A stretch of DNA of 64,000 nt, taken from NCBI GenBank assembly GCA_000004695.1, contig CM000151.3, positions 2,624,001 through 2,688,000 of the forward strand, written 5' to 3'. The stretch comes from Dictyostelium discoideum. Taxonomy: Eukaryota. Below are positions 17,089 to 44,725 of the stretch, in pieces. The notes below the pieces were generated by a model, which searched no databases, was not told the origin of the DNA, and worked only from the letters and a program-made list of their open reading frames with translations. How positions within the stretch are numbered: position 1 is the stretch's first letter; the number at the start of each line of letters is the position of its first letter. A program made the position numbers and the translations under genes.

Positions 17089-17123
<35 letters not shown>

Positions 17124-18899: not shown

Positions 18900-18939
<40 letters not shown>

Positions 18940-19307: not shown

Positions 19308-19338
<31 letters not shown>

Positions 19339-19898: not shown

Positions 19899-20512
19899 AT
19901 GAATAATTTAATACCTGTTTCAAATTCATTTGATAGTATGAGAGCTTTATTTTTTATTAATATATATTTTATAATTTATAAATAATAATTTTAATAAATT
20001 AAAATTTTTTTTATTTTTTTATTTTTTTTACTATTTTTTTTTAATAATTTTAGGTAATGGACAAACATATTATACAATTGGTAATTATGTTGATATTTAT
20101 GAAATTACATCAATAGCATTTGGACCAAATACAATTGATATTAAAACATTTTCAATACCTTCAAATATTAAAAATGTCATTTTATTGGATGGTTTCAATC
20201 AAGAGATACCTCAAAACTATTTTCCAAACACTGTCACAACCATTATCATTCATAATATAAGTAAACCATTATCAATTGGATCATTATCAAATATTAAGAA
20301 TGTTTATTTAAAAGATGGTTTTAACCACCCACTTGAATCTGGTATCATTCCAACAAGTATTCAAAAATTATATTTATCCCCAAATTTTAATCAAAAATTA
20401 TTTTCATCTTCATCAATACCTAATTCAATTGTGCTTGAAATCTTTTATAGTGATCCTTTTGATTATACAATTTTTACTAATTTAAATATTAATAATATTA
20501 AATTATTAAAAC

Positions 20513-20517
<5 letters not shown>
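19899..20517 (+). CDS. FNIP-repeat protein (Dictyostelium FNIP repeat family), 2 exons
   Basis: Exon 1 is 19899..19935 (MNNLIPVSNSFD, donor GTATGA). Exon 2 is 20054..20517. It contains the repeats ...LLDGFNQEIPQNYFPNTVTTIIIHNISKPLSIGSLSNIKNVYLKDGFNHPLESGIIPTSIQKLYLSPNFNQKL..., which fit FNIP periodicity (FNQ.I..G.IP.S...L). Confidence 0.55.
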
Positions 20518-20606
<89 letters not shown>

Positions 20607-20607
20607 T
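20518..20607. repeat. (AAT)n microsatellite
   Basis: About 30 AAT units lie directly after the FNIP gene stop. Similar long (AAT)n tracts are at 21803-21965 and 60001-60150. Confidence 0.9.
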
Positions 20608-21812
20608 TAAATTATTTAAAACTAAATAAATAACATAAATAAATAAAAAATAAATAAAAAAATAAATAAAGATGTATTTTTAAAAAAAAAACAATAATAA
20701 AAACAAAATAATTATTTTAGTATATATCACATTATTTGATAAAAATAATAAAAAAATAAAAAAAATAATAAAAAAAATAAAAAAAAAAAAAAATAAAAAA
20801 AATAAAAAAAATAAATATTATTAAAATAAAAATTTAAAAACGATTGGTTTCTCGTTCTTATGAATAATTTACTTCTTTCAAAAAAAAAAAAAAAAAAATT
20901 AATTAAATTAAATTATATAGGTTACAATTTTTTAAAAGGAAGAAACCACCAATTTTTTTTTTTTATTTTGTTTTTTTTTTTTTTTTTTATTAAACAAAAA
21001 ATTAATTCAAAAAAAAAAAATTAAAAAAAAGAAAAAAAAAGAGATAAATATTTTTCAACTGTTATCTATTAATTTTTATTTAAATTTAACACCCATTTAG
21101 CTCTATAGGTAATTAATATGCATTATTTTTTTAAATTTTTTTTTATTTTTTAATTTTTTTAATTTTTTAATTTTTTATTTTTTTTAATACCAGGTGGTTA
21201 ATTATGATTATTGTTAATATTGTTATGTGCGGTAATTTATTTATTTGGTAAATTTGGAATTTCTCATATTTAAACAAACATTCGATCTTAGGAACCCCAC
21301 ATTTACCATAATAATTATTTTTTAATACTGGTATAGTGTTTGTGGTTTAATTAACTTTCATTTCATAAACACACCAAATAAACCCACCCCCAAAAACGAA
21401 AATAATTAGATTTTTTAAAAAATTTCTCAATACACCCCAAATTCAAACATTGATTTTTATAACTTTCTACTCTTTTTATTTTTTTTATTTTTATTTTTTT
21501 TTTTTTAATTTTTTATTTTTATTTCATTTTTTTAACTATTCCAATAGTAATAAACACATATTTTTATTTTATTTTATTTTTATTTTTTTTATTATTATTA
21601 TATTTCACTTTAAAAAATATTCACTTTAAATTTTTCTAACAATAATTTACCTTTTTAAAATAATTTAGTAAAAAAAAATTAAAAAAAAAAATAAAAAACA
21701 CATTAAACAATTTTTTTTTTTTTAAGGATTTCCATATTTTTCACATTTAATTTTTTTTATTATTTATTGGAAATCCTTCCTCGTTATTAAAACCTTATTA
21801 AAAATTAAATTA

Positions 21813-21969
<157 letters not shown>

Positions 21970-22002
21970 TAAAATAAAATAAAATAATAAAAATAATATT
22001 AG

Positions 22003-22032
<30 letters not shown>

Positions 22033-22035
<3 letters not shown>

Positions 22036-23664
22036 TTAATTGAATGTAGATTTTGTTTAGAAGAAATTGAAGTTGAAGATCCAATTTATGATAAAAAAGA
22101 ATTTAATTTAAATGAAAATTCAATAAAATCAAAAGATATAGAAATAGAAGAATTAGAATTTAAAGAGAAATTAAATCGAAATAGTAATGGCGGATATGTA
22201 GAATTAACACCAATTTCACAATCAAAGAGACAACGTAAGAATATTGGTAATAGATTAGTTAGACCATGTGATTGTAAAGGTACTCAAAGACATGTACATG
22301 TTAAATGTCTTTGTGAATGGATTGGTAAATGCAATAAATGGTATTGTTCAATCTGTCATAGAGTTTATAATTTATCACCACATCATTTACATTATTGTGT
22401 AATGAAATTACAAAGAAAAGGAGTTTTAAAGAATTTACCACCAATCTATTCAAATACTGAATTCTCTCGTTCAAGTTATTTTGCATTATTAATTTTTATG
22501 GGTACACTAAGTATGTTAATGTTACCTTCAACTCTACCACAACAAAATTCAAAAATTTATTATGGTGTCGACACAATTTTAAATAACCATATAAATAATA
22601 ATAACAATAATAATGGTGTTGGTAGTGGTAGTGGTGGTAGTGGAACAGGTGGTGCAACAGTAAATTCATTATTATTTAATAATTTTAATGGTGGTATAAT
22701 ATCATTTTCAAATGAGGTTAGTGGAGGTGGCATGTTTATGAATTATAATCCACTAGTTGGTATTAATGGAGATACAACCACTGCTGGTTATAATCCAGGA
22801 TTTCTAAATTCGCCATCAGTTTCTTATTATAGTTTTTATCCATCTTCTTCTTCACCATCAATTTATATATCTTCAACGGGAGGTAGCTCTTCAGCAGCAC
22901 AACTTAACTTTCATCAACATTATAATGTAAATTCAATTCAAAGTAATAATAATAAAAATAAAAATAATAATAAAAATGATAATAATGATAATAACAATAT
23001 TAATATCAAAAATAAAGGAAAAGATTTGAATGAAAAATTATTTGAAAGTGATTTTGATCAATATTTTAATAGTGATTCAGCATCAATATTTTCATCATGT
23101 AAATTAAAAAATCAAGATGAAAAGTTTAGTTCTTTTGTTTGTCATTCATCACTTTATAGTCCAAATGTATTAAATTCAAATAATAATCCAAATAATCAAC
23201 AACAAGTTAATTTTCATTTTCCAACAATAGTTCGTAGTAGTTCAACAAGTGGTGGTGGTAGTAGTAACAATAATGATGAAAGTACAGATAGTATAACAAG
23301 TGAACAGTTAAAACAACAACACAAAGTTTTATTAAAGAATTATAATTTTATTCATAATATTGAAAATTATCAACCAACCACCCCAACAACAACTACTTCT
23401 ACAATTTTACAAAATGGTGAAAATCGTTGTATTGATGAGAACGAACAACTACAACAACAAGAAACTGAACAACAACAACAATCAAAAAAATATAAATCAA
23501 CATCAAAATCACCAATTTTAAATAACTTAGGATCAGAATACCATGATGATATTCATTTACAAAATATTTACATTGCACATCAAAAATATCATCGTGTAAC
23601 AATTGCTGATTCATTTAAAAATATATTCTGTACCTTGATCCCAGTTAAAAGGTTCTGTTATTAA
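22033..23664 (+). CDS. RING-CH (RINGv / MARCH-type) zinc-finger protein with predicted TM segment(s); putative membrane E3 ubiquitin ligase
   Basis: C-x2-C ... RPCDCKGTQRHVHVKCLCEWI...CSICH gives the C4HC3 RING-variant spacing. It is followed by a hydrophobic stretch YFALLIFMGTLSMLMLP, then an Asn/Ser-rich tail. Confidence 0.7.
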
Positions 23665-23847
23665 AAATTAAAAAATATTACAATTATTTAAAAAAAAAAA
23701 AAAAAATAAAAGAAATAATTAAAAACAAATAATTTATATTTATTTTATTAATTTTATTAATTTTATTATTGTTATTATTATTAATTTTATTATTATTATT
23801 GTTTATTATTTATTATTATTTATTATTTATTATTTATTATTTATTAT

Positions 23848-27990
<4,143 letters not shown>

Positions 27991-28477
27991 TTGAAATTTT
28001 TTTTTTTTTTTTTTTTAATTAAATTGTTTTTGAAAAAATTTTATAATTTTTTTTTTTTTTTATTTTTTTTTTTTTTTGTCTAAAATTTATTTTTTTTAAA
28101 AAATGAAAAAAATAAAAAAAAATGAAAAAAAATAAAAAAATATCTTTTTTTTTTTTTATTTTAAAAATATTATTTTTATTTTTGATAAAGCCTATAATTT
28201 TCATATGACTAAAATAAAATAAAAAAAAAAGATATTTTTTTGATGATTGAAAATTTTGTGGTTTTTATTTAAAACACTTTGTTTTTTGATTGTGCCGTGA
28301 AACTATTCGTTGCAATCTCATCAATCAACCTATATTTTATTTTCTTTTATTTAAAATTAATTTTTTTTTATTTTTTTATTTTTTACACTCAAAACGGTTT
28401 AACCATGTGCACAATTTTTTTTATTTTGTTTATTATTTTTAAAATTTGATTTTTTATTTTAATAATTTTTTTTTTTT

Positions 28478-28509
<32 letters not shown>

Positions 28510-28627
28510 AATCAATCATATAAAATAAAAATAGAAATTATCTTGTACAAAAATAATTAAAAAAAAAAAAAATAAAAAAAAAAAAAAAAAAAAATTGTTT
28601 AAAAAAAAAAAAAAATAATTTCTAAAA

Positions 28628-30045
28628 ATGGAATCAACAGAATATTTTACAGGTTCAGATTCATTTGATAAATTAACATATTCATTTATGGGTTTAAGAT
28701 TAATAGCATATACATATTTTTTTATTATATGTTTTTATCAAGCATTTTTAGAAATTCTTAAAATGATTAAAAAACAATCAAAAACTACAACAAGATTTTT
28801 TGTATTTTTTTTTCAATCTTTATTTTGTATTTTAAGAACAATTCAAACAGCATTTTTCTATGATAACCACCAATTAGGTAAATTTTTTATTTTTATTTTT
28901 ATTTTTTTATTTTAAAAATTCAATCAATAATAATTCTAAACAAATTATTTTTAGGTATTGGAACACCAAATTTTTTTTTCTTTTCATTAGGTACTGCAGC
29001 AATTTTCCTTGCTTGGGTTTTTATTCAACATTATTGTAAGTAGAATCATATAGTTTTTAATTTTTTTCTTTATGTTTTAATATAATTATTAATTTTTTAT
29101 TTTTATTTTTATTTTTTAAAAAAAGGGTTACTTATTATGTATAAATTTTTTATTTCAGAAGAAGTTAGACTAAATCGAGCAAAACCAATTAATTATTCAA
29201 CATTTATTTTTGCCCTTGTTATTATAATTTATCAATTTACAGTTTCAAGTATAACCTTGCGTAAAAATATTGAAACAGCAGAGTCTGTTGGATTTTTAAT
29301 TTTACTTTTAATTTATGCATCAATAGTTTCGGTAATTAATTTTATTATTATTATTATTATTTTAGTTATTATTATTATTTTTTTAATGGTATTAATTTTA
29401 ATTATTTAATATTTTTTTTTTAAAAAGTTTAATGGTTATTATTTATTAAGACATTTAAAAAAACATAAAAAGTCAACACCATTTAGTCATTTTGATATTA
29501 TGATTTTAAAAACCAAGATTTTATTATCAACAGTTATTTTTGTAGCAGTAACAATTATCATACAAGAACTTATTTTCAATATGTATTATACAGACACTTA
29601 TGAAACACCAAGACAATATTTAAAATTATTTATTGTTGGTGTAATAGAATTTTTTCAATTGGTAAATATTTTTAATATTTTAAAAAATAAAATTAATTAC
29701 ACCAATTATAAAAAAATATTATTAATTATTAATAAAATTATTTTTTTATATTATTATTATTAGTTAGTTGTAATGTTAGTATTATCAGATGGTAAATGGA
29801 AAGTTTATGTATTATTTAAATCAATTAAAACTCATAATGATAGTTCTAGTGAAATGGAAAATTCAAATAGTAATTCTAAAGGTAAAAAGAGTTCAACATT
29901 TGATTTAGGATATAGTGGTAATACAAATTCAAATTTTAATACTTTGGAAATTTCAATTGAAATTGAAAATTCAAATAAATCTTCAACAAGTTTTAGTAAT
30001 AGCAAAAGTGATCTAATTAATTCTTCTTTAAAAGATCCAAGTTAA
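28628..30045 (+). CDS. 7-transmembrane protein of the THH1/TOM1/TOM3 family (TOM1-like), 5 exons, 350 aa
   Basis: Exons are 28628..28877, 28955..29035, 29126..29331, 29428..29661 and 29764..30045 (GTAAAT/GTAAGT/GTAATT donors, AG acceptors, phases consistent). There are seven hydrophobic segments. Blocks QAFLEILKMIKKQSKTTTRFFVFFFQSLFCILRTIQTAFFY and PNFFFFSLGTAAIFLAWVFIQHY parallel plant TOM1 ([37 protein letters not shown] and PGLLFFSAYTLLVLFWAEIYHQ). Confidence 0.6.
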
Positions 30046-30669
30046 AATATTAAAAATAAAAAAAAAAAATTATTTATTAAATTGTAAAAATTAATTTAGA
30101 AATATAATTGTTTTCTTTTTATTTTTTTAAAGTACAACAAAAATAAAAATGTATCAGTTCTCAAATTATTTGCTATTAAAATAAAAATTTCATCGAAAGC
30201 AAATAAAAAAATAAAATTTATAAAAAAAAAATTAAATAATTTCTAAAAAAAAAAGAAAAAATTGCTTTAACTTGTTAAAAATAATAACTTTGTAATAAAG
30301 TTACTCTATAAAATTAATAGATATTAAATATGCATATTACATTACTAATTATAGTTGACACACATTTAAATAATATAATAATAATAATAATAATACTGTC
30401 AACTCATTATAAATAATATAAATACTAAAGAATAATTTTATAAACAATATTGAATATTATAAATATAAACTAATATTAAATAAAGATAACAAAGTATTAT
30501 TCAATTATATAATTATTAATTATATATTTATAAATTTTTTTTTTGAATTGGATAACGCAATTATTATTTGCTTCTCCTTGAGATGCTAGATCTCATTTTA
30601 TTTTATTTTTTTTTTTTTTTTTTACAGGGTCTCTAAAAGAGGGGTTAGTTTACTTTTTTTTTTTTTTTT

Positions 30670-30960
30670 TTTTGTTTCGAATTTTGAATTGTATTATTAC
30701 TTTTGATTAAAACATCTTTTTTGTTCCAACTTTTTTCTAAATCTTTTTTTATTTTATCGTCTGGTTCGTGATTGATGTTTATGACGTATTTGAATTGTTT
30801 TTTTTTTAATTGAGTTTTATCCACAATTTCGCTTATTTTTTGTAGGCATTTGTGTTGCTTAATATTTGTGGTGTTGTTTGTGATTTTCATTTTATTTTCT
30901 TTCTATTTTTTATATTTTTCTTTAAAAAGTTAAAAATCTGGAAATTTTCTGATTAACTTG
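30670..30960 (-). repeat. 3' copy of the ~290-bp B-like module, near-identical to 35590..35875. It is flanked by oligo(A) tracts (plus-strand T runs at 30651-30672 and 30966-31020). The short C-like module plus terminal oligo(A) is at about 30535-30650.
   Basis: The shared block ...gtattattacttttgattaaaacatcttttttgt(t)ccaa...gtaggcatttgtgttgcttaatatttgtggtgttgtttgtgattttcattttattttctttcta...cttgggttcccagg appears at both locations. Confidence 0.8.
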
Positions 30961-30966
30961 GGTTCC

Positions 30967-31024
<58 letters not shown>

Positions 31025-34000
31025 TTATTTATAGAAAGTACTGAGTGAATTATTGTATTTTTTGAGATGTTTAGGAAGTTCTATTGCGTGAAGAGGTGAG
31101 TTCCATTGTCTGCTAAATTGTAATAGCTTTAGCGAGATTAGTGAGTCTAATTTATTTTGTTCTTCTGGCCGTTGCTTTGATTTGATTCTTAATGTTTTGT
31201 TTATAACCGCTTGTGTCCTGTCCCATGCAGCTCTTTGTGTTTTAATTAGTTCACGTATGACTTGTTGTCTGTGAATTATTATTTCTTTTTCATCGTGAAT
31301 GAGTTTATTTCTTTTGTGCCAGATTTTATCGAATATAATAGCTATTAAATTGGCTACTAGTGCAATTTGTAGATGGTTTAAAATCTTCACATTCCAGGTG
31401 TGAGTGGTGTGTCCACACTTAGTTAGGGTGTAGTTGAAGATTTCTTGTGTGTTTTTGATGTGGGCTTTGCAGTTGAAGAATATATGTTCTGAGGTCTCAT
31501 CTTCCCCACACTGTTGGCATGGCATGTTGTATATTTTTGGTAGTGCTTTCAGTGTGTATCTCCATAATAGATCTCTACCTTTCATGTTTATTATTTTTTT
31601 GATTTCTTTAAATGGAAGGTGTTTGCTATTAATTTTGGTCATTATTTCTTTTTGGCCAGGAGTTGGTATGAATTTGTTGTGTTCAGGAGATTGAGTTGTC
31701 ATCATATCTTCGTATATTTTTTTTAATTTTGGGAGGTGTTCGTAGTGTGTTTGTTTATTTTGTGGAGTTTTTAATTGGGTCCATGCTTGCTTGCATTGCC
31801 AGTGTAGTTGTAGTTGATTTTGTTTTGTTGTTGTTTTGTTGTTGTTGTTGTTTTTGAGTTCCTCTTCCCACAGTTTTATATATGAACTAGGAGTGTTACT
31901 TACTCTTTGGTGGAGGTATCTTTCGAATAACCATGCTTTCTGTGCTAGTTCTCTTGTCTTCAGGTTCCATAAGTTTAGGCCACCATTGATATAGTTGTTT
32001 TGTCTTCTTTGTAGTGAAAGAGAGTTTTTAGATTTTGTGTTGAAAACGAATTTTACGATGTTATTTTCAATACTATTGTGTTGTGGTGTGGTGTTGATGT
32101 AAGTGTGGAACGTTAACTGAGATAGTGCATATGTTTTTGCCATTATGAGTCTGCCCATATAGGTTGATGAAGTTGAGTTCCATGTTACTAGTTTAGCTCT
32201 GATGTTGTCTGAGATTGTATTGATTTTGGATTTGATACCCTTATTGTTGAAGTCAAAGCCGAGGTACCTTTCGTTTGATTTTATGACGGTGTATAGCGTT
32301 CTGGTGTTCCATTTGAAAGTGATACACGAGCATTTGGTTTGGTTTATTTTTGCGCTGGTTGCTTGGCAAAACTTCTTGATCCATTCATTCATGAGGAAAT
32401 GGTCCATAAAGTTGTATGCTATTGTTGCTGTATCATCGGCGAACTGTAGTATTTTAATGGTTTCTTTGGTTACACCATTGATGCAGCGGTCATTTATTAT
32501 AGTAGTTGCCATGCATTCAACCACTAATGCGAAGATAGTGGGAGAGATAGGATCACCTTGTTTGGTTCCTCTTTTTGATGTAAAGCTTTTAGATAATGAG
32601 TTATTGATGTACACTGATGTTTCTGATTCATTGAGTAAGTTCATTATTGTGAGGACCATTTTGAGTGGTAGTTTTAGATGTGCAAGAGTACGTAGAATGG
32701 CGTTATGTGAGATTGAATCGAATGCTTTTTCAAAATCATAAAATGTTATGATTGGTTCCATATCCTCTTTTGTGTTAATCTCTCGTTTTATTATTTCTAT
32801 TGTTGAGTTTAAGGTGATGATGTTATCGTGCAGTAGTCTTCTTGGTACGAATCCAGTTTGGAATGGTGAGATTATTTTGTTTAAGAACTTCAGGATCCTA
32901 TTGTTGATTATTTTCGAATAGATTTTGTAATCGACATTTAGAAGTGTTATTGGTCTATAATTATCCAGGTTGTTTGGGTCTCCTTTGTTTTTATATATAG
33001 TAATCAATATCCCTTGTTTGAAGTCCTTTGGGATTGTTGTGTTCCAGAAGTGATTGTATAGTTTTGATATTATTGGTAGAATTTCATTAATGTGGTTTTT
33101 GTAAAATGTTGGAAGGAGTCCATCTTTACCAGGTGCTTTTCCTTCTTGTATTTTTTCAATGCCTAGTCTGATTTCATATCCTTCTATTGGTTGATTAATT
33201 TCGTCCAATATCTTTTGATCAATCCTTTTATTGAATGTTTTTAGGAGTTCGTGGTGAGTGTCTTCGTTGCATTCTCTCTTCTGGTACAGGTTCTCGTAAT
33301 ATCTTCTTGCTACTTCGAGGATATCCTCGTGTTTTGTTACCAAACAATTGTTGCTTGGATCTAGAATTTGAGGGATTTCATTTGTCTTTCTTTGGACTTT
33401 TAACCTTCTGGTTAAGTATTTTGATGGTGTTTCTTTGTTGTTGATGTGGGTGTTGGTTTGGTTTGCTTGTTTTATTCTTACTTGTTCCTTTAGAATATTG
33501 TTGATCTCTTCTTTAAGGAAGATTGCTCTTGAATCTTTGGCTGTTTCGAGTTTTTCTGCGAGTTCTTTTAGTTTGTTTTTGGTTTTATTGCTTTCTCTAA
33601 TTTCTATATTAATTGACAGTTTCTTTATTTCATCTTTTAGTTTCAACCATTGTTCGCAAATGTTTAATTTGTACCATTTGCTGGTGTTCTCTTCGAATTT
33701 TTTATTGTAGTATTTAATTGTTTTATTAATTTTGAGGCTGGTTGAATTCATTTTGAGAGTTTCTAGGTTTTGTCTCCATAGTCTTTCTCCTTTCTTTTGT
33801 TGCTCGTATTCTGGTATTTTTAATTCAATGATTACCATGTTGTGATCAGATTTTAATTTGATTTCCTTAGTAGTAACTATTGGGTTTAGATGGAGTATCT
33901 TCTTTGAGACAAAGACCCTATCGATGGTTGATTTGTTTCTTGGAAATGTGATTCCATTCTTAATTTCTGTAAATTCGAATTCGTCGAAGATTGTTTTAAT

Positions 34001-34246
34001 ATATTTGTTAAGGTTATTATCCACTGAACAGTCTACATTGAAGTCTCCAGTTATAATATCGCTGTGTAGTATTTCTTCTGTGAGATTTTCCTTATACCAT
34101 TCATGTCTTTCGTTTGACTTTGCTGGGGCATAAATGGTTGTGCATTTGATCTGTGTTTTTGCAATCATCCATTCGGAAGATATAATTCTTTCGTTTATTG
34201 TTTTTGTTGTTGTTTTTATTTGGGTGTTGATGATGATTTGTGACAC
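31025..34246 (-). CDS. Retrotransposon ORF2 (APE endonuclease + reverse transcriptase + Cys-rich C-terminal domain), 1073 aa, no internal stops
   Basis: Motifs as above: ITGDFNVDCS (EN), SDHNMVIIELKI (EN), FADD (RT), CQQCG..H..C knuckle. Confidence 0.85.
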   Translation of the reverse strand: MSQIIINTQIKTTTKTINERIISSEWMIAKTQIKCTTIYAPAKSNERHEWYKENLTEEILHSDIITGDFNVDCSVDNNLNKYIKTIFDEFEFTEIKNGITFPRNKSTIDRVFVSKKILHLNPIVTTKEIKLKSDHNMVIIELKIPEYEQQKKGERLWRQNLETLKMNSTSLKINKTIKYYNKKFEENTSKWYKLNICEQWLKLKDEIKKLSINIEIRESNKTKNKLKELAEKLETAKDSRAIFLKEEINNILKEQVRIKQANQTNTHINNKETPSKYLTRRLKVQRKTNEIPQILDPSNNCLVTKHEDILEVARRYYENLYQKRECNEDTHHELLKTFNKRIDQKILDEINQPIEGYEIRLGIEKIQEGKAPGKDGLLPTFYKNHINEILPIISKLYNHFWNTTIPKDFKQGILITIYKNKGDPNNLDNYRPITLLNVDYKIYSKIINNRILKFLNKIISPFQTGFVPRRLLHDNIITLNSTIEIIKREINTKEDMEPIITFYDFEKAFDSISHNAILRTLAHLKLPLKMVLTIMNLLNESETSVYINNSLSKSFTSKRGTKQGDPISPTIFALVVECMATTIINDRCINGVTKETIKILQFADDTATIAYNFMDHFLMNEWIKKFCQATSAKINQTKCSCITFKWNTRTLYTVIKSNERYLGFDFNNKGIKSKINTISDNIRAKLVTWNSTSSTYMGRLIMAKTYALSQLTFHTYINTTPQHNSIENNIVKFVFNTKSKNSLSLQRRQNNYINGGLNLWNLKTRELAQKAWLFERYLHQRVSNTPSSYIKLWEEELKNNNNNKTTTKQNQLQLHWQCKQAWTQLKTPQNKQTHYEHLPKLKKIYEDMMTTQSPEHNKFIPTPGQKEIMTKINSKHLPFKEIKKIINMKGRDLLWRYTLKALPKIYNMPCQQCGEDETSEHIFFNCKAHIKNTQEIFNYTLTKCGHTTHTWNVKILNHLQIALVANLIAIIFDKIWHKRNKLIHDEKEIIIHRQQVIRELIKTQRAAWDRTQAVINKTLRIKSKQRPEEQNKLDSLISLKLLQFSRQWNSPLHAIELPKHLKKYNNSLSTFYK

Positions 34247-34458
34247 CCCTTGTCCTGTTTTATCAATTGGTGCGTGGTGTGTTATTTTGTTTTTATATTG
34301 TTGATTTATTGAGTAAATTTTATTTGTTTTTATATTTGTTTCAGTTAGAAGTGCTGCGTCCAGCTTGTTGTTGTCTAATACGGTGTTTATTATGCTGGCA
34401 GATTGGATGGTGTTGGATCCTTGGACGTTCCAAACACCTATTCTTATTGTGTTTTTCT

Positions 34459-35793
34459 TTATAGTTTTATTTGGGGTAGATTTTTATCTACCTTTTGAAG
34501 TTTCTGGTTTATTTTGTCTTCTAACTGATCTTTACTTTGTTCGTTGTGTTGTTGGTCTTGTGTGTTTGTGGGGTTTTTTGATTTACTGATTTGTTTTAGA
34601 ATTTCCTTGTTGAAGTTGTCTATATCTTCATCCATTTTTGTTTTTATGCTTTTTTGTCCATATTCACCCAATTTTGGTTTGACTGGTGTTTTGTTGGTCC
34701 TGTTTGTTTTGTCTTGTTGTTTGTTTTTTGGTGTGTTTAACAATTTACTTGGTGAATCGATAATTTTCGATGGTGTACCATAGGTTGGGCTGAAACTCAT
34801 GATATGTTTTATTGGAGAGGAGAAGAACCATTGATTTGAAGGGATTGAAAGTGGGAATTCTATTTTTCTTATTGCATCAGTGTTTGGGCTGGTGAAGTCG
34901 AAGATATCATTTACCTCTCTAAGTTTTTCTTCCGTTGTTAGTCTCTTTGTTTCGCCGTGTTGTTTTATTGGTGTATTGTATGGAGATGGTGGTTCAATAG
35001 GTTTTTCTGATTTTGTTTTAATTTCTTGATTGTTTATCGATTGGGTATTGATCTCATTCTCTATTCTTGTTAGTTCATCTACGTTTTCTAGTGATGCATC
35101 TATTACCTTTTGAGCTGTATCATCTAGGGCCATAAATGTTTTATCATTAGATGAGGAGGTGATTGGTGGGATAATGATTGTTCTTTTTCCTTGTTTTGGT
35201 ATTTGTTCTGATGTAGATTGTGGTTGTTGTTCATCTGATTGTTTTTTATTTTTGTTTTCTTCTTGATTTTCTGGTAATGAGGTTTGATCTCTCCATCCTT
35301 TGTTGGAGTGACCAATTAATGTTAGATTGTCTAGTTCAATGATAGTGTCATATTCTTCTACGACTCTTTTCACTGTTTTGATAATTAGAGTTTCGCCTTT
35401 AATTTCAGATTTAATTAGTTTACATCCTTCATTTTCTATTACCCATTCTATTTCTGTGAGTGATTTATACCAATCGAAATCCGTATACATATTTTTTGGT
35501 CTTAGAGTGGTTATAAATTGTCCTTTTAATTCTGCATCGAACATATTTACAAAATAGATTACTGTACTAATACTGTCTGTGAGAATTTTGAATGTATTAT
35601 TACTTTTGATTAAAACATCTTTTTTGTCCAAACTTTTTTCTAAATCTTTTTTTATTTTATCGTCTGGTTCGTGATTGATGTTTATGACGTATTTGAATTG
35701 TTTTTTTTTTAATTGAGTTTTATCCACAATTTCGCTTATTTTTTGTAGGCATTTGTGTTGCTTAATATTTGTGGTGTTGTTTGTGATTTTCAT
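34459..35793 (-). CDS. Retrotransposon ORF1, 444 aa, intact
   Basis: It starts MKITNNTTNIKQHKCLQKISEIVDKTQLKKKQFKYVININHEPDDKIKK.... The first 57 codons are duplicated in the 3' B-like module (ORF 30645..30890). Confidence 0.75.
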   Translation of the reverse strand: MKITNNTTNIKQHKCLQKISEIVDKTQLKKKQFKYVININHEPDDKIKKDLEKSLDKKDVLIKSNNTFKILTDSISTVIYFVNMFDAELKGQFITTLRPKNMYTDFDWYKSLTEIEWVIENEGCKLIKSEIKGETLIIKTVKRVVEEYDTIIELDNLTLIGHSNKGWRDQTSLPENQEENKNKKQSDEQQPQSTSEQIPKQGKRTIIIPPITSSSNDKTFMALDDTAQKVIDASLENVDELTRIENEINTQSINNQEIKTKSEKPIEPPSPYNTPIKQHGETKRLTTEEKLREVNDIFDFTSPNTDAIRKIEFPLSIPSNQWFFSSPIKHIMSFSPTYGTPSKIIDSPSKLLNTPKNKQQDKTNRTNKTPVKPKLGEYGQKSIKTKMDEDIDNFNKEILKQISKSKNPTNTQDQQHNEQSKDQLEDKINQKLQKVDKNLPQIKL

Positions 35794-35869
35794 TTTATTT
35801 TCTTTCTATCTTTTATATTTTTCTTTAAAAAGTTAAAAATCTGGAAATTTTCTGATTAACTTGGGTTCC

Positions 35870-35912
<43 letters not shown>

Positions 35913-35915
<3 letters not shown>

Positions 35916-37535
35916 TCTTTTTTATATGAAAAATGAAATAATCAAAAAAAGAGATTGTTGTTGTTGTTTGTTTTTTTTCGATCTGATTATTTTTTGCTTT
36001 TTTTTGAAAATTTTGCTACGCAAAATTCTCAAAACGAAACAAATAATAAATTACAATAAAGTAAAAAGATGGCTTTTTAAGATAGTTTATTTATTTATTT
36101 ATTTGTTTTTTAAGTCTTTTTTATATGAAAAATGAAATAATCAAAAAAAGAGATTGTTGTTGTTGTTTGTTTTTTTTCGATCTGATTATTTTTTGCTTTT
36201 TTTTGAAAATTTTGCTACGCAAAATTCTCAAAACGAAACAAATAATAAATTACAATAAAGCAAAAAGATGGCTTTTTAAGATATTTTATTTATTTATTTA
36301 TTTGTTTTTTAAGTCTTTCTTATTTGAAAAATGAAATAATCAAAAAAAGAGATTGTTGTTGTTGTTTGTTTTTTTTCGATCTGATTATTTTTTGCTTTTT
36401 TTTGAAAATTTTGCTACGCAAAATTCTCAAAACGAAACAAATAATAAATTACAATAAAGTAAAAAGATGGCTTTTTAAGATAGTTTATTTATTTATTTAT
36501 TTGTTTTTTAAGTCTTTTTTATATGAAAAATGAAATAATCAAAAAAAGAGATTGTTGTTGTTGTTTGTTTTTTTTCGATCTGATTATTTTTTGCTTTTTT
36601 TTGAAAATTTTGCTACGCAAAATTCTCAAAACGAAACAAATAATAAATTACAATAAAGTAAAAAGATGGCTTTTTAAGATAGTTTATTTATTTATTTATT
36701 TGTTTTTTAAGTCTTTTTTATATGAAAAATGAAATAATCAAAAAAAGAGATTGTTGTTGTTGTTTGTTTTTTTTCGATCTGATTATTTTTTGCTTTTTTT
36801 TGAAAATTTTGCTACGCAAAATTCTCAAAACGAAACAAATAATAAATTACAATAAAGTAAAAAGATGGCTTTTTAAGATAGTTTATTTATTTATTTATTT
36901 GTTTTTTAAGTCTTTTTTATATGAAAAATGAAATAATCAAAAAAAGAGATTGTTGTTGTTGTTTGTTTTTTTTCGATCTGATTATTTTTTGCTTTTTTTT
37001 GAAAATTTTGCTACGCAAAATTCTCAAAACGAAACAAATAATAAATTACAATAAAGTAAAAAGATGGCTTTTTAAGATAGTTTATTTATTTATTTATTTG
37101 TTTTTTAAGTCTTTTTTATATGAAAAATGAAATAATCAAAAAAAGAGATTGTTGTTGTTGTTTGTTTTTTTTCGATCTGATTATTTTTTGCTTTTTTTTG
37201 AAAATTTTGCTACGCAAAATTCTCAAAACGAAACAAATAATAAATTACAATAAAGTAAAAAGATGGCTTTTTAAGATAGTTTATTTATTTATTTATTTGT
37301 TTTTTAAGTCTTTTTTATATGAAAAATGAAATAATCAAAAAAAGAGATTGTTGTTGTTGTTTGTTTTTTTTCGATCTGATTATTTTTTGCTTTTTTTTGA
37401 AAATTTTGCTACGCAAAATTCTCAAAACGAAACAAATAATAAATTACAATAAAGTAAAAAGATGGCTTTTTAAGATAGTTTATTTATTTATTTATTTGTT
37501 TTTTAAGTCTTTTTTATATGAAAAATGAAATAATC
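35913..37535. repeat. Tandem array of about 8.16 near-identical copies of a 199-bp unit, forming the 5' end of the retroelement. It is consistent with the TRE5-A A-module, which is reported to occur in variable copy number.
   Basis: Period is exactly 199 bp (the ORF-track ORFs at 35926, 36125, ... 37319 are identical 69-aa artefacts). The unit is aagtcttttttatatgaaaaatgaaataatcaaaaaaagagattgttgttgttg...ttgctacgcaaaattctcaaaacgaaac...ttatttatttatttatttgtttttt. The copy at 36113-36311 carries three point differences. Confidence 0.9.
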
Positions 37536-37583
37536 CATATATATTTATAAAGCTAACAAGCTTTATTACAACTTACATACAAA

Positions 37584-37666
37584 GCAAGGGTAGGAAAGTC
37601 TGGTTAAATCCGTGTGACTTAAGATCTCATCCATTCGGTTCGCGAGTTCGAATCTCGCCTCTTGCA
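37584..37666 (+). tRNA. tRNA-Leu (anticodon UAA), class II with a long variable arm, 83 nt
   Basis: Acceptor GCAAGGG/CTCTTGC (one G-U pair) with discriminator A. D-arm GGA..AGTCTGGTTAAA..TCC. Anticodon loop CT-TAA-GA. T-arm GCGAG-TTCGAAT-CTCGC. A T5 run starts at 37670 (Pol III terminator). Confidence 0.85.
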
Positions 37667-37919
37667 ATGATTTTTCAACTTCATTAATAGGATCATATGT
37701 TCGACTCCTTTTTAATCCTTTAAACATTTATTAAATAAAAACTTAATCTAGATAAAATTGATGGACATTATTTAAAAAAATTAAAAAAAAACTGGAGATT
37801 GTTCGTCACCAAATACACAATCCAATAATAAATAAAAAACGGTGGCTTAGATATGTTGGATTTTGGCCATTCTAGCAAAACACATAATAAGAAATAATAG
37901 TAAAAAATTTTCTAAAAGG

Positions 37920-38660
37920 AAAAATCAAATTTTTTATTATCTAAGTTTTGGTTTAAATGAAAAACCAAAAATTGGAGTACCATCAATTTTAGTATTTTCA
38001 AATGGTGGTAAAATATGGAAATTTAAGACCAAATTGGTTAATAAGAGATATAATTCATCTTGGGAGAAACCCATACCAACACAATTTCTAACACCAATAC
38101 TATATGGAAACCAATTATTTGATTAATTATTTTGATAAATGAATCTTTCTGGAATAAATTCATTTGGTGATGACCAGTATTTTTCGTCTCTAAATATTGA
38201 ATAAAGTGATTGAATGATTTGAGCACCTTTTAGAAATGTATATTTACCATTATCAATTGTAAATTCTTCAATTACTAAACGTGATACACCAATGCTACTG
38301 GTGGGTATAATCTTAATACTTCTTTTAATGAAGCATTAAATAAAGGTGTCAATGGCCGGTGAGATAAATTAATTAATTTATTTTCACTTGGTAATTGTTT
38401 TAATTGAAATTCTTTGCGATTACATTACTCTAGAGTAAACCATTTCATTGTAGCACTATTATTTTCAACTGCAGCTAAAATTCATTTGTAATTGAAATAA
38501 CTGAACACTCTTCTTTTCCATTTACTTTTCTATATTCTGAAATAATTGAATCTAAAACATCTCTTGGATTATCAATATAAATTGTTTCACAATGTTCTTA
38601 ATAATATTTATTAATTATCTTTTTCAAGGGGTCTGAAGGATGACCAAAAATTTTTGAATA
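37920..38660 (-). pseudogene. Cytochrome P450 pseudogene fragment. It covers only the C-terminal ~230 aa equivalent, with multiple in-frame stops and frameshifts.
   Basis: The minus-strand conceptual translation gives ...NPRDVLDSIISEYRKVNGKEE.., LKEVLRLYPPVALV (K-helix ExxR / PPV region), FRDEKYWSSPNEFIPERF (PERF motif) and FPYSIGVRNCVGMGFSQDELYLLLTNLVLNF (heme-binding FxxGxRxCxG). There is a TAA between PERF and the heme loop and at least three other stops or shifts. The +ORF 37863..38126 and -ORF 38038..38226 are pieces of it or its antisense. Confidence 0.75.
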
Positions 38661-38752
38661 AATAAAATAAAATGGATAACAATTATTATTGAGAAAAATT
38701 AATTCTGATTAATCTGTGAAATATTGCTATTTGAAATTTTTTTTTCAAAAAT

Positions 38753-38823
38753 GGCTCCTTAGCATAGTGGTATTGCGCTTCCCTAGTAAGGAAGAGGTCA
38801 TGAGTTCGATCCTCATAGGAGCC
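38753..38823 (+). tRNA. tRNA-Thr (anticodon AGU), 71 nt
   Basis: Perfect 7-bp acceptor GGCTCCT/AGGAGCC with discriminator T. Anticodon stem CTTCC/GGAAG with loop CT-AGT-AA. T-arm ATGAG-TTCGATC-CTCAT. TTTT lies immediately 3' (38824-38827). Confidence 0.9.
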
Positions 38824-38849
38824 TTTTAAAAAATTCTGTTAAATAGATC

Positions 38850-39060
38850 AAGGGATCGATTCTCCAAACAAAAAAACAAACAAACAAAAAAACAAACAAA
38901 CAAACAAAAAAACAAACAAACAAACAAAAAAACAAACAAACAAACAAAAAAACAAACAAACAAAAAAACAAACAAAAAAACTAACAAAAAAACAATCAAA
39001 AAAACAATCAAACAATCAAACAATCAAACAATCAAACAAACCAACCAACAAACAAACAAA
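38850..39060. repeat. (CAAA)n / (CAAACAAACAAAAAAA)n microsatellite, about 200 bp
   Basis: Directly visible downstream of tRNA-Thr. The ORF 38826..39023 is an artefact of it. Confidence 0.9.
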
Positions 39061-39112
39061 TTTTAATTAACAAACAAAAAATACTTTGTTTTAATTAGGG
39101 AGAAGCTAAATT

Positions 39113-39219
39113 TTATTTTTTCAAAAATTTATTTAATAGTCTCTCTCTTCTAAAATACATCATTTCAATTTTTTCTTTGGGAATGATACCATTATTTTGG
39201 TTATTATTTTGGTTATTAC

Positions 39220-39283
<64 letters not shown>

Positions 39284-39894
39284 TATAAAATTGATTGGTA
39301 TTATATTTTGGGTAAAATGCATTTGACCAATTAATATAAAATATCTTTTTGTAAGAATATTTTTAGCTTGTGTTGAAATTAGGTATTTTGAGATTTTTTG
39401 AGAGGTTTTAAAAAATAATTGTCTTCCAAAATTACCAAAATCATAAAGAGTTATTAAAAATTTAAATATTGACTCTAATAATTCTTTTGAATCCCTATTA
39501 TCTATAATTGTTTGTTCATTTGGATATCTTTCAAAGTCAATGATATTATTATTATTATTATTAGTATTTCTTTGAAAGAAATAAGTTTTTAATTTAATTA
39601 AACTATTTCTTATACTTGTATTATGAGATTCCTTTAAATTTTGTTGTACTTGATTTATTGGATCATTATAAATTATTTGAATTATAATTTTAATGAAATG
39701 TTTGATTAATTTCATTATAATTAAATTTATATTATCATTTTGATTTTCATCACTATTATTATTATTACTATTTTCATTTTCATTTGTTAATGATAATAAA
39801 TCCAATCTTGAAGAATAACAATAAAGGAAAGAATTAAATAATTTAAAAATTTCAATTTTACTTGATATTGACTTTTGGTTGAAATTTATAAAAC

Positions 39895-39977
<83 letters not shown>

Positions 39978-40436
39978 ATAAAAATTGATTTAAAAATTAA
40001 AATAAAATTATGTTGAATTATATTATGTAAATCAATTTCTTGATATTTTATATTATTTTTAAATAAATATTTTGTAAATTTAATTAAAACCAATTGTGTA
40101 TGAATACAAGCACTACCATTACCACTAAAATAAAAACCAAATAAATCATTCAATATAAAAGATTTTAACTTTTCAAATTTTAATAAATGAATTGATAAAT
40201 TTTTAAAAGATTTCTTTTTCCTTTGATTCATTTGTTGATCAAATGATTTTAATATGTGAATGAAAATCTTTGAAAACCAATAATTATAATTTGGAAATAC
40301 TTTATCAAATGAATAAATCAATTGATTTAAATCTTTTACATTCTTATATTCTAAATCTTTTAAAAATAAATCTATAAATTTTGATCCAATACTATTATTA
40401 CTAATAATATTATTATTATTATTTAAATTCTTTTGA

Positions 40437-40498
<62 letters not shown>

Positions 40499-42049
40499 TG
40501 TTATAGTTTTTATTGTATTATTACTATTTATATTATTATTTATATTATTATTATTATTATTATTAATATTATTAATTTTATTACTCTCTTTTAAATCAAT
40601 AATAAAATGTGGACAAATTACAACTACCATATTTACATAGGCCATTAAAACTGACATTTTAGAAATACTGTTTGATATATGTTTATTCTCTAAATCATAA
40701 ACTTTTGATCTTTCTTCAAATGAATTTAAAAATCTAATTTGATAATCGAACCAATCGAATTCTGGTATTTTTGAAGGTTGTTGTTGTTGTTGTTTTTGTT
40801 GTTGTGGTAAAGTTTTTTGGGGTGAAGTTGTTGTTGTTGTAATTGTTAAATTAATTTTTGAAGTTGGTAATGGTTTATCAATTTGATATTGATTTTCAAT
40901 TCTTTTTAAAAATTGTAAAATTAATTTTCTTTTTTCAGAAGTTTTTGAAAGATTTGTTGATAACATGAATTGATTATCCTTGAAAAGGTAATGATTTTTA
41001 AATACTAAACAAGTTGAAGTCGGTATTGATAGTAAAAGGAATTGATCGATATACTTTTGATGTAATTCAATTTCAAATAATAAAATTGGATCAATTAGTA
41101 CCAACATAAATATATTTATAAATTGATTTTGATATCTCTTTAAAAAATGTTCATTAAATTCTTCATCTTTTAATATCTTTGTAAAACAATAAATTGATAT
41201 TAAAAATATATTATAATCATTTGAAATTTGAAAATTATTATTATTTTTAAATGTTGGTGGTATATTAATATTTAAAAAGTATTGATTAATATCAATTGTA
41301 GTTGTTGTCGTTGTTGTTGTTGTTGGTGGTAAAGTTGTTAATTTAAATTTCCCAATTAAACAATCACCAATACTCTTTATAAAATTAATTGATTGTTTTG
41401 TATAAATTGAATAAAGTTGAACTGTTATTGGATTAAAAAATGATTGATTATTTGATACTATCTTATATCTATTATTATTTTGATTATTATTATTATTTTG
41501 ATTATTTAATAATGATAAATTATTAATTGGATTATTTACAAAAGTTGATACTAATAAATGAATATATTCGATATATTTCTCTTGAACTGATTTTTCAAAT
41601 GATTTAAAATGTCTTTCTAAATTGAATGAGAAATTATTAAAATATTTTGAATCTTTTTTTATAAACCTAATATATTGATGTAAAATAAATTTTGACCATA
41701 ATTCTCTATTAAAATTATTTTTATTATTATTATTATTATTATTATTAATATTTGAAAATAATGATTTCAAATTTTGATTTGGATACATTTTATCAAAAAT
41801 ATTTGTTACAATGATTGTTGTAATATCTTTAATTAATGAAATTAAAATATCTTCAAAAGAAAATAGATATTGAATCATTAAATTCATTACACTGAAAATA
41901 CCATTTAATATTAAATAACCAGCTTGTAAAAGTATAGTTTCTGATCTTGAAAAATCAATTAATAATGTCATTGATTTTATAATTCTTTTTAATTGATCAC
42001 ATGTAGTTGTTGTTGTTGTTGTTGTAGTTGTTGTTGTTGTTACTATTGA

Positions 42050-42127
<78 letters not shown>

Positions 42128-42360
42128 ACCAATACTATCAATACATAAAACTGCAATTGAAATTAAATTTGAAAACCAACATTTAAATGTTGAAATTGGT
42201 GTATCCAATTCTTTAATGACTTGAACAGAAGATGAATTCAATTTACTCTTTTTAAATTGTTGATATAATTCTTCATATGGATTTTTAATTTGTTCAAATG
42301 AAAAACTGTTAAATGCTCTTTTAAATGTTATAATTCTATATACGATTGGTGTTATTTGAC

Positions 42361-42436
<76 letters not shown>

Positions 42437-44140
42437 TAATAATGTTGATACTATACTTGGTGATTCATTATTATATATATTTATCAATTTCTGAATTATA
42501 TTATTGTTATTGTTATTATTGTTATTATTGTTATTTGATTTTGGTGGTGTGGTAGAAGGAGAAGGAGAATTTAATTTTCTTTTATAGTAATTTATTAAAC
42601 ATAAAAATAAACTCGTATTAATTAAATCTAATGATGCTGGTTCAATATTTGATTTTAAATAGAGATCTGAAAAAGAAGAGGAAGATAAAGATGATGGTGA
42701 TGAATAATCTGGTTTAAATAATTCTATAATTTTATTATAAGATGGTGCAGTATCATTAATAGAAGGATTTGATGCTGATTCTTGTAAAAATGATAACAAA
42801 ACTATAAATTTATAAATCTCTTCGAATAGTGTATCTAAACTAATTAATGGTGATGTTATCTCTATATACCTAAATAAAATTACCATTATTTTTGAAAATT
42901 GATTTATTATTGATTCCAAATTATTATTATAATTTTTATTACTATTATTACTATTATTATTATTATTTGTAGTAGTTGTAGTTGTAGTAGTAGTGGCGGT
43001 GGTGAGATTTATTAATATTTGAGTATTTTTTTTAATGAAATTTAAAACTAATTTTGAAATTAAACTCCAATTTTCAAATTTATTTTCAAATTGATAATTT
43101 AAAAGTTTAGAAATTGGTGATATTAAATAATTATTATTATTATTGTTTTGATGATCTTTATTTTTTTGAAATTTTAATAAAGCTTTAGTTATCTCTAAAG
43201 TAATATTCAAGTAATGTATTATTGATTGATTGTATAATTCAAACTTTTTATTCCTATTTTTATTATTTATATATAAATTAAAGTAATCCCAAAATGTTGA
43301 TGTTATTGGTGCTAAATTATCTTGATTATCTTTTTTAAATAATTTTAAAAAGTTGAATATAAATTTTTGAAGATTATATTCATCATCTTCGTTATCTTCT
43401 TCTTCTTCTTCTTCTTCTACTTCTTCATAATCATCATCATTATCATATTTATTTTTATTTCTACTATTTCTACTTTTATAACTAACATTATTATTATTAA
43501 TTGTACCTCCTCTAAAATATTAATTTATTTAAGATTAGTATAGTAAATTAAAATATTATAAAATACACGATAAAAAATCTGATAATGATTTTTTTTTTTT
43601 TTTTTTTTTTTTACCTTTTAAGTGAATCTAATTTTGAAATTGATATTAAGATAATTGATAAAAATGAATCAATTATTGAATCTAATATATTTGAATTATC
43701 ATCATCTAAAATAAAAGTAGTATTATCATAAACTGATATTTTAAATAATTGGGCTAAAATTGAATTAATTAAAAAACTATGATTCAATTGTTTAATTTGG
43801 TCATTTAATAATGTTGATTTTTGACTAATTAAAAATTCTAAAGAATAAACATTCTCTTTTTTTTGTTTTTTTTTTTTTTTTACTATGTTAATAAAATATT
43901 ATTTGATTAAATGAATTTTATTTTATTAAAATTATACATACGTCTTAAATAATGTTTAATTCTATAAATTAAGCAATTAATGAATGTATTATTATAAACA
44001 TTAAGGTATTGATTATTATTATTATTATTATTTGTAAAATAAGTAATTAAATCTTTAAAAAATTTAATAAATTCTTTGGTGGTACCCCCTTTACTATTAA
44101 AATCAAGTACCGTTTCTTCAATTTCATTAAATATATTCAA
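39113..44140 (-). CDS. Very large low-complexity hypothetical protein (~1621 aa, 3 exons), with poly-Asn and poly-Thr tracts
   Basis: Exons are 43942..44140 (MNIFNEIEETVLDFNSKGGTTKEFIKFFKDLITYF..., donor GTATGT), 43615..43882 (donor GTAAAA) and 39113..43511. The acceptor AGs and phases 1/2 are consistent. The ORF-track 1365-aa ORF is the 3' part; it begins at a TTG, not a true start. No recognisable domain. Confidence 0.55.
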
Positions 44141-44191
44141 AAAAAAATTATTTATTTCCTTTGTTTAATAGTTTTGTGAGTGTGAGTAAAA

Positions 44192-44233
<42 letters not shown>

Positions 44234-44312
44234 AGTATTTACATCTTTGGAAATAATTGGGCAAAATCTTAATTTTCTATTTTTATATTGAAAAAGGAAA
44301 ATTATTTTATTG

Positions 44313-44386
<74 letters not shown>

Positions 44387-44725
44387 ATTATTATTATTAT
44401 TATTATTATTTCTATTTAGAAAGTTGTATTCATTATCAATCATTTTCAAAATGAATGAATGAATTTTTTTTTTTTTCTTTTTTTTTTATTATTTTGGCGC
44501 CAAAATTTTTTTTTTTCCAAAATTAAAAAATAATAAAAAACTAATAAAACAACAACAAATTTTAGTTAGTATACAAATCTGCCAATCAAGCCATTAATGG
44601 TACAACTACGTTATGATTGGTACCACTTATGGTTAAAATAAAATTTCGGTGTAATAAAACCAAAAATATTTATTATTTAATTTAATTTTTTTTTATTTAA
44701 TTTAATTTTTAATTGGTGTTTCATC

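Follow-up and report, generated by a model that had tools for sequence, protein, structure and literature searches.

A TRE5-A.1 retrotransposon at a tRNA-Leu(UAA) gene of Dictyostelium discoideum, absent from the same site in a near-isogenic assembly

Background

TRE5-A.1, formerly DRE, is a retrotransposon family of Dictyostelium discoideum built on the plan AB-ORF1/ORF2-BC, in which the A-module measures about 200 bp and the B-module, about 290 bp, is duplicated and holds the start of ORF1 (PMC3159450). TRE5-A elements integrate 47+/-3 bp upstream of tRNA (Pol III) genes (PMC5391098), in an orientation relative to the tRNA gene for which a rule has been given for TRE5-A.1 (PMC3159450), with target-site duplications of 10-16 bp (PMC9012585) and, on record, extra nucleotides at their 5' junctions (PMC5391098). 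The ORF1 of TRE5-A has no similarity to L1 ORF1 (PMC5391098), while its ORF2 lies in the -1 frame and is assumed in the literature to be reached by a -1 frameshift (PMC5911963). At the other end, the 3'-terminal 54 nt of the C-module form stem-loops needed for retrotransposition, and Siol 2011 mutated C38, A35, C26 and T15, counted from the 3' end of that module (PMC3159450). The element described here agrees with this family in the position and orientation at its target, in its A, B and C modules, in the sequences and -1 overlap of its two ORFs, in its C-module nucleotides and in the length of its duplication.

Members of the family are transcribed in sense from the A-module and in antisense from the C-module, and every A-module acts as an internal promoter unit for Pol II. 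In this TRE5-A resembles mouse LINE-1, whose 5' UTR monomers (A, TF, GF) are likewise tandem promoter units of about 200 bp, variable in number and often with a truncated first unit, standing upstream of a non-repeated leader and ORF1. The two are unrelated in sequence and in host, and TRE5-A arrays, unlike those of mouse LINE-1, close in a fixed 31-nt stub and a long oligo(A) before the B-module. In its coding part, TRE5-A is like human LINE-1, with whose ORF2p its ORF2 shares the APE-RT-Cys architecture and the fold. In SART1, stop and start codons are coupled as UAAUG.

Structure of the element and its insertion site

The window, a 64,000-nt stretch of D. discoideum DNA (contig CM000151.3, positions 2,624,001 to 2,688,000), carries on its minus strand, at 30535..37537, what is almost certainly one complete TRE5-A.1 non-LTR (LINE-like) retrotransposon, put in upstream of tRNA-Leu(UAA) by target-primed reverse transcription and recent on the scale of strain divergence (Table 1). 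A preliminary description had called it TRE5-A-like, and its ORFs, modules, position and target-site duplication all agree with TRE5-A.1; every defining feature of that family that could be tested was present, and no evidence contradicting the assignment was found. The copy follows the plan A(n)B-ORF1/ORF2-BC with a terminal oligo(A), and the finer layout proposed earlier, module/oligo(A)/B/ORF1/ORF2/oligo(A)/B/oligo(A)/C/oligo(A), is borne out on the element strand, its first module being A. The single 5' "module" of that proposal is actually a tandem array of 8 x 199 bp, followed by a 31-nt partial unit and A39. Both the kind of element and its place are already known, and the copy adds little that is new.

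Table 1. Features of the TRE5-A.1 copy and its target, in window coordinates
Feature	Position	Strand	Basis or remark
Target-site duplication, distal copy, 14 bp, TTTATAAATATATA	30521..30534	-	sequence comparison with empty site
Terminal oligo(A)10	30535..30544	-	sequence; empty-site comparison
C-module	30545..30653	-	100% identical to C-modules of L001, L003, L005, L006
Segment between 3' B-module and C-module, oligo(A) in the layout	30654..30673	-	sequence
3' B-module	30679..30970	-	98.6% identical to 5' copy; blastn
Internal oligo(A)52 after ORF2 stop	30971..31022	-	sequence
ORF2 open frame, 1152 sense codons + stop	31025..34483 (sense 34483..31028)	-	-1 frame
ORF1, 444 aa	34459..35793	-	protein comparison; identical to AX4 proteins EAL67844/EAL68868/EAL70570/EAL70891
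5' B-module, ~291 bp, holds ORF1 start codon at 35793	35583..35873	-	blastn against 3' copy and other loci
Internal oligo(A)39 between A array and B-module	35874..35912	-	sequence
Partial ninth A unit, 31 nt, GATTATTTC...GACTT	35913..35943	-	unit comparison
Eight tandem 199-bp A-modules (promoter units)	35944..37535	-	TRF period 199, 8.3 copies, 99% matches; unit-by-unit comparison
Two untemplated nt at 5' junction, TG on element strand	37536..37537	-	not at empty site; not contiguous with A-module sequence
Target-site duplication, tRNA-proximal copy, 14 bp, TTTATAAATATATA on element strand	37538..37551	-	-33..-46 from tRNA 5' end
tRNA-Leu(UAA) gene, anticodon taa, Pol III target directing insertion	37584..37666	+	ARAGORN; same gene at empty site L010

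The element is 7.0 kb long rather than 5.6 kb (1.35 kb above the 5.65-kb reference) because its 5' end consists of eight A-modules and the stub, whereas TRE5-A.1 schematics draw one A unit. Seven of the units are identical; unit 7 has 4 substitutions and matched none of the A variants of other sub-lineages. An array of eight is normal, since the nine other full-length copies that form the comparison set (L001-L009) carry 1-19 A-modules, and the partial unit closes every array whose A/B junction was printed (L001, L002, L003, L005, L008). Relative to the commonest 5' terminus among these copies, AGATCG..., the first unit lacks 41 nt. A search of the open-access literature found no text stating that A-modules occur in multiple copies. 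Marschalek et al. in 1992, however, reportedly described a proximal end of TRE5-A (DRE) in which either one A module or several precede a single B module.

Element and tRNA gene stand head-to-head, with the A array adjoining the tRNA gene. The element had been placed "exactly 48 bp" upstream of that gene, and the gap is indeed 48 bp long (37536..37583), but native DNA makes up 46 bp of it (37538..37583); the other two bases are counted as untemplated because the empty site described below is without them. This distance of 46-48 bp lies within the TRE5-A.1 window, and in the comparison set 9/9 copies stand 45-54 bp from a divergent tRNA gene. A target-site duplication, which the preliminary description had proposed to look for at the element ends, is present, and its 14 bp, verified against the empty site, fall within the TRE5-A range. 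At the 3' end, positions 38/35/26/15 from the end of the C-module read C/A/C/T, as at the sites mutated by Siol 2011, and the predicted fold of the module has a free energy of -13.5 kcal/mol (z=-2.75). The 3' B-module carries a dead-end 81-codon ORF with an ORF1-like start.

ORF1 and ORF2

Both frames are uninterrupted, as had been reported, ORF1 over its 444 aa and ORF2 down to its end at 31025. Alignment for hidden frameshifts revealed no indel: ORF1 and ORF2 are gap-free against the nine other copies at 99.7-99.9% identity, and modules and ORFs taken together are gap-free at 98-100% identity. Over the 5.3-kb B-to-C stretch, comparison with four mutually identical copies gave 12 substitutions, the difference from the dominant TRE5-A.1 lineage of the comparison strain, and 11-13 gap columns, 0 of the latter in either ORF. 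Genomic loci were sought through protein P0080 and through one flanking gene; exact-product searches with the window ORF1, P0001 and P0083, and likewise with the second flanking ORF, returned no genomic positions.

The ORF1 product is identical to P0069, a member of a D. discoideum AX4 protein cluster, and 97-99.5% identical to other AX4 copies, while outside the AX4 group its sole match, 65% identical, is from D. cf. discoideum. A Pfam search of ORF1 found no domain, and the protein agrees with the family-specific ORF1 protein of TRE5-A.1, which is about 51 kDa and unrelated to other ORF1 proteins.

ORF2 overlaps ORF1 by 25 nt, one base back. Its earlier reading as an open frame with an APE endonuclease, a reverse transcriptase with FADD and a Cys knuckle stands, but the length of 1073 aa, counted from a GTG, gives way to 1152 codons, and the APE motifs WNVQG and LLTETN fall before the 1073-aa start. 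The frame opens without an ATG and reaches its first Met at codon 106 (34168), from which point the sequence is identical to protein P0083. The endonuclease spans about aa 11-240 and the L1-type reverse transcriptase aa 502-743 (FADD; Pfam RVT_1, E=3.3e-33; human L1 ORF2p, E=1.7e-46), and near the C terminus CX2CX7HX4C was read from the sequence, with a weak zf-RVT match (E=0.035). Pfam did not report the endonuclease when run on the whole of ORF2 and gave it 20.5 bits on the N-terminal 248 aa, below the 24.5-bit cut-off, and a PDB sequence search with the domain returned noise only. An AF2 model of codons 1-248 (pLDDT 90.9), in contrast, had LINE-1 endonucleases as its best matches in a fold search (E=2.4e-15, TM 0.71-0.77). 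Structure prediction and fold search thus settle the question of an APE-type endonuclease. In addition, a comparison of 19 relatives showed no variation in the catalytic residues GDFN, D188 and DH213-214.

An empty site in a near-isogenic assembly

At the orthologous locus L010 the tRNA-Leu gene is present, the element is absent and the 14-mer of the duplication occurs once (L010 7457..7470); therefore, the insertion at tRNA-Leu(UAA) is real and recent. One flank of L010 shows 0 substitutions in 7.5 kb, and the other, of 16.7 kb, two isolated substitutions and 11 further mismatches clustered in a single patch (window 20845..20949). The assembly carrying this empty site is probably AX2-214. Near-isogenic laboratory strains are polymorphic for this insertion, in agreement with the published view of TRE5-A as a family that has stayed active in the laboratory. 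If the window derives from a Sanger-era assembly, the interior of the element and its number of A-modules may reflect a mosaic of reads from more than one copy.

Alternative readings and competence

One may argue that the 7-kb block results from several independent insertions at one tRNA gene, either a TRE-TRE tandem or truncated remnants that now pass for A repeats. Tandems at a single tRNA gene are common in the TRE5-A family (PMC5391098) and are seen at L001, L005 and L007, and the excess over the reference length points the same way. Nevertheless, the eight A units follow one another without any shift in their 199-bp register, which is shared by other single elements with 1-19 units, and no oligo(A), duplication or flank was found between units anywhere in the block 35944..37535. 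We reject this extremely improbable pile-up, since the entire block lies between the two copies of a single 14-bp duplication, and at the empty site its flanks meet exactly. It is also very unlikely that the difference between the two assemblies reflects an assembly artefact or a precise deletion rather than a recent insertion. Repeats are hard to assemble in this AT-rich genome, and the assemblies were made with different technologies (PMC12745789), but a misassembly would not yield a perfect 14-bp duplication and 2 extra bases at the canonical tRNA distance, and the empty site is a clean single 14-mer with near-identical sequence around it over 24 kb. A LINE could be lost precisely through a 14-bp repeat, although such loss is much rarer than insertion by a known active element.

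The view of the preliminary description that the copy is a candidate for retrotransposition competence is plausible, reasonable but unproven. A point against it is the 5' truncation of the first A unit. The copy may be genuine but dead or crippled, perhaps carried along passively or serving to supply ORF1 protein and RNA, which we regard as possible but rather unlikely. Such a fate would be in keeping with the 12 lineage-specific substitutions over 5.3 kb and with two derived residues in the endonuclease-RT linker of ORF2, H385 and G435 (open-frame numbering), in place of the N and E found both in the dominant lineage and in a divergent subfamily; moreover, ORF2 is without an AUG, so that its expression hangs on a putative recoding or reinitiation step. 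However, the missing AUG is common to all copies of a family whose activity has been demonstrated by experiment (PMC3159450, PMC5391098); in this copy the catalytic motifs, C-module and A units are intact, and the insertion is very young. In addition, the same ORF1 and ORF2 proteins occur at several AX4 loci, which suggests that the sub-lineage itself has been copied.

Proposed course of insertion

Beside the boundaries, duplication, empty site, ORFs, folds and family identity observed here, a course of events may be set that draws on established knowledge of the family. The ORF1 protein of the element would bind TFIIIB on the tRNA gene, and some 33 bp upstream of that gene the ORF2 endonuclease would nick the bottom strand. 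Copying of the RNA would start at its C-module/oligo(A) end. Another nick, 14 bp more distant from the gene, would give rise to the target-site duplication, and 2 extra bases would be added where the 5' end is joined. The template RNA would have begun within the most upstream unit of a source array of at least 8 A-modules; alternatively, the 41 nt may have been lost during integration. The significance of the locus is small, that of a textbook position-specific retrotransposon recognised from sequence.

Translation of ORF2

No canonical slippery X_XXY_YYZ was found in the ORF1/ORF2 overlap, where the nearest slippery-like site, judged from the sequence, is U_AAA_AAU (34486..34480). In the relatives L011 and L012 the ORF2 ATG overlaps the ORF1 stop as ATGA, which is the classic termination-reinitiation arrangement and resembles the UAAUG coupling of SART1. 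TRE5-A.1 itself, unlike these relatives, has AAA in the place of the ATG, and its ORF1 stop lies two codons further upstream. Because the relatives have ATGA, the ATG has been lost, the element is active and a slippery heptamer is missing, it is conceivable, if doubtful, that TRE5-A.1 makes ORF2 without frameshifting, through reinitiation at a non-AUG codon as human L1 does. As a separate matter, and just as tentatively, the array of 1-19 A-modules could be a copy-number-tunable promoter like mouse L1 monomers. The comparison with L011 and L012 raises a testable question on ORF2 translation. The endonuclease fold needs the first 105 ORF2 codons, and public gene models in which ORF2 begins with the first Met (1047 aa) drop these 105 residues of the endonuclease domain.

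The insertion and its empty site

The orthologous locus in a second D. discoideum assembly, GCA_054883475.1, was reached via a flanking gene of the window and lacks the element. In the alignment, positions 1..7470 of this empty site (L010) correspond to window 45016..37538 and positions 7457..24143 to window 30534..13809, and the 14-mer TTTATAAATATATA, single copy in L010, is found on both sides of the element in the window. The target-site duplication that the preliminary description proposed to look for is thus present and is 14 bp long. The 5' junction additionally contains the dinucleotide TG, which comes from neither the target nor the A-module. No substitutions separate L010 from the window along the 7.5-kb flank, and the 16.7-kb flank shows two isolated substitutions and one patch of 11 clustered mismatches; the other flank differences are indels in simple repeats. 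Together, the empty site, the single 14-mer and the near-identical flanks establish a genuine single insertion that has exact boundaries and is very young. Judging from this near-identity and from assembly statistics, GCA_054883475.1 probably corresponds to the AX2-214 genome published by Holland et al. 2025 (PMC12745789). The mismatch patch, at window 20845..20949, sits amid otherwise near-identical flank and is probably explained by misassembly, by misalignment at this spot or by a localized indel.

Counting native DNA only, 46 bp separate the tRNA gene from the insertion. The element does lie upstream of tRNA-Leu as first described, but its spacing of "exactly 48 bp" counted in the two untemplated bases. 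Both 46 and 48 bp fall inside the published insertion window of 47+/-3 bp (PMC5391098), which bears out position-specific integration. Between tRNA-Leu(UAA) and tRNA-Thr(AGU, 38753..38824), we also observed a cytochrome P450-like pseudogene fragment (window ~37940..38330, minus strand, possibly extending to ~38600) with the heme-binding motif FPYSIGVRNCVG, in-frame stops and frameshifts.

The sequence of the insertion fits target-primed reverse transcription, the steps of which are taken from the literature rather than from the window (PMC3159450, PMC5391098, PMC5911963). The bottom strand would first be nicked ~33 bp upstream of the tRNA, where the 14-mer has its tRNA-proximal edge; cDNA synthesis starting at the C-module/oligo(A) end would follow, then another nick 14 bp farther from the tRNA, and finally joining of the 5' end with addition of two bases. 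ORF1-TFIIIB contacts have a role in target choice and the A-module acts as a promoter (PMC3159450, PMC5391098, PMC5911963).

Element structure and family identity

The element reads, in order, A array, oligo(A)39, 5' B-module carrying the ORF1 start, ORF1, ORF2, oligo(A)52, second B-module, oligo(A)20, C-module and terminal oligo(A)10. This is the layout already described, with the uninterrupted 444-aa ORF1, except that the supposed single 5' module is actually an array of eight units and a partial one.

Features of the element and the adjacent tRNA gene (window coordinates)
Feature	Position	Strand	Source
tRNA-Leu(UAA)	37584..37666	+	ARAGORN
ORF1, 444 aa, ATG start	35793..34459	-	ORF reading
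A array, 8 x 199 bp perfect tandem, then 31-nt partial unit	37535..35944 (eight units)	-	sequence reading

Unit 7 differs by four substitutions from the other seven A units, which are identical. It is this array that brings the element to 7.0 kb; cut down to a single A unit and given the most frequent 5' end, the window copy would measure 5639 nt, near the 5647 nt that the reference numbering of Siol et al. (PMC3159450) reaches at the end of the C-module. The four substitutions of unit 7 (window 36143..36341) are absent from the other window A units, from ten loci and from the variant A units of L001, L005 and L007. For the window copy, the exact ORF products are recorded for AX4 only; if the window derives from that Sanger-era assembly, repeat assembly could have altered both the A-unit count and the interior of the element.

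The ORF1 product is identical to the AX4 protein P0069, a sequence encoded at several loci, and from Met106 onwards ORF2 matches P0083 exactly. Since databases label both only as 'hypothetical protein', the family was tied to its published name via structure. Matching traits of TRE5-A.1 are an A unit of ~200 bp, a duplicated ~290-bp B-module carrying the ORF1 start, a head-to-head position ~47 bp from a tRNA gene, a -1 ORF2 and a 10-16 bp target-site duplication (PMC3159450, PMC5391098, PMC5911963, PMC9012585). Moreover, C38, A35, C26 and T15 from the 3' end of the C-module are all identical to the nucleotides mutated by Siol et al. (PMC3159450). The TRE5-A.1 interpretation originally proposed is therefore supported, and elements of this kind are known and annotated, this one occupying the textbook position.

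Extent and translation of ORF2

The ORF2 frame is uninterrupted, as claimed, but the length of 1073 aa corresponds to a GTG start: the stop-to-stop frame is open from 34483 and ends, stop codon included, at 31025 (minus strand), giving 1152 sense codons, and its first Met is codon 106 (34168). The product contains a reverse transcriptase (Pfam RVT_1, E=3.3e-33) and resembles human LINE-1 ORF2p (E=1.7e-46). Its endonuclease stays below the Pfam cut-off (20.5 vs 24.5 bits) and is too divergent to be identified by a PDB sequence search. An AlphaFold model of codons 1-248 is confident (pLDDT 90.9), residues 11-105 included, and a fold search with it ranks LINE-1 endonuclease domains first (E=2.4e-15, TM 0.71-0.77). 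The catalytic GDFN, D188 and D213-H214 are unchanged across 19 relatives. Given this confident fold, the endonuclease requires the 105 codons that precede the first Met, and the model indicates that it is cut short both in the 1073-aa ORF and in the public gene models of 1047 aa. The latter, AX4 models starting at the first Met, leave out these codons (window 34168..34483), which are integral to the modelled fold.

On sequence, the translation of ORF2 allows two readings. ORF2 expression is said to need a -1 frameshift (PMC5911963), and ORF2 overlaps ORF1 by 25 nt, one base back, in the -1 frame. Within this overlap there is no canonical slippery heptamer, the sole near-match being U_AAA_AAU at 34486..34480. 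In two related elements, L011 (4480..4570) and L012 (3962..4030), the ORF2 ATG overlaps the ORF1 stop as ATGA, whereas TRE5-A.1 (window 34440..34490) has AAA in place of this ATG, an ORF1 TAA stop two codons earlier, and an ORF2 without AUG for 105 codons. An AUA overlaps this UAA stop. The missing slippery site and this difference from the relatives thus make non-AUG reinitiation, instead of a -1 frameshift, a live alternative for how ORF2 may be made.

Comparison with other full-length copies

Nine loci with full-length copies in GCA_054883475.1 (L001-L009) were compared with the window copy. Their ORF1 and ORF2 align with it gaplessly at 99.7-99.9% identity, so the hidden frameshifts that would have undermined the initial reading are absent. 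Over the 5.3-kb B-to-C stretch, four copies are mutually identical and share the same 12 substitutions relative to the window copy, whose ORF2 has two derived residues, H385 and G435, compared with the dominant lineage (N and E). With these residues as a caveat, the window copy is a plausible candidate for retrotransposition competence. Every comparison copy has a divergently oriented tRNA gene 45-54 bp away.

A-module copy numbers in the comparison loci are 1, 2, 2, 3, 3, 10, 10 and 19, and a multi-unit array is thus normal for TRE5-A.1. The 5' start is AGATCG or CAGATCG in six of the nine loci, equivalent to five distinct sites; L008 and L009 overlap one site, which starts elsewhere. This common start lies 41-42 nt upstream of the beginning of the window copy, which is therefore slightly 5'-truncated or initiated at a minor site. 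The A units of the L001-L009 arrays (upstream of position 8296 per locus) are identical to the main unit of the window, and a 31-nt stub with a long oligo(A) ends every array with a printed A/B junction.

Several of these loci are rearranged. ORF1-ORF2-B-ORF1-ORF2 tandems, in which the 3' B-module runs into a full second ORF1, occupy 8296..18494 of both L007 and L008 and 3411..13609 of L009, and look like products of recombination between B-modules. L001 5217..7746 holds a TRE5-A.2-like copy, lacking ORF2 nucleotides 262-3396, which is arranged in tandem with a full-length one. L005 13677..14370 and L007 18493..19256 have ends of the 'BC.ABC' type, whose A unit differs slightly.
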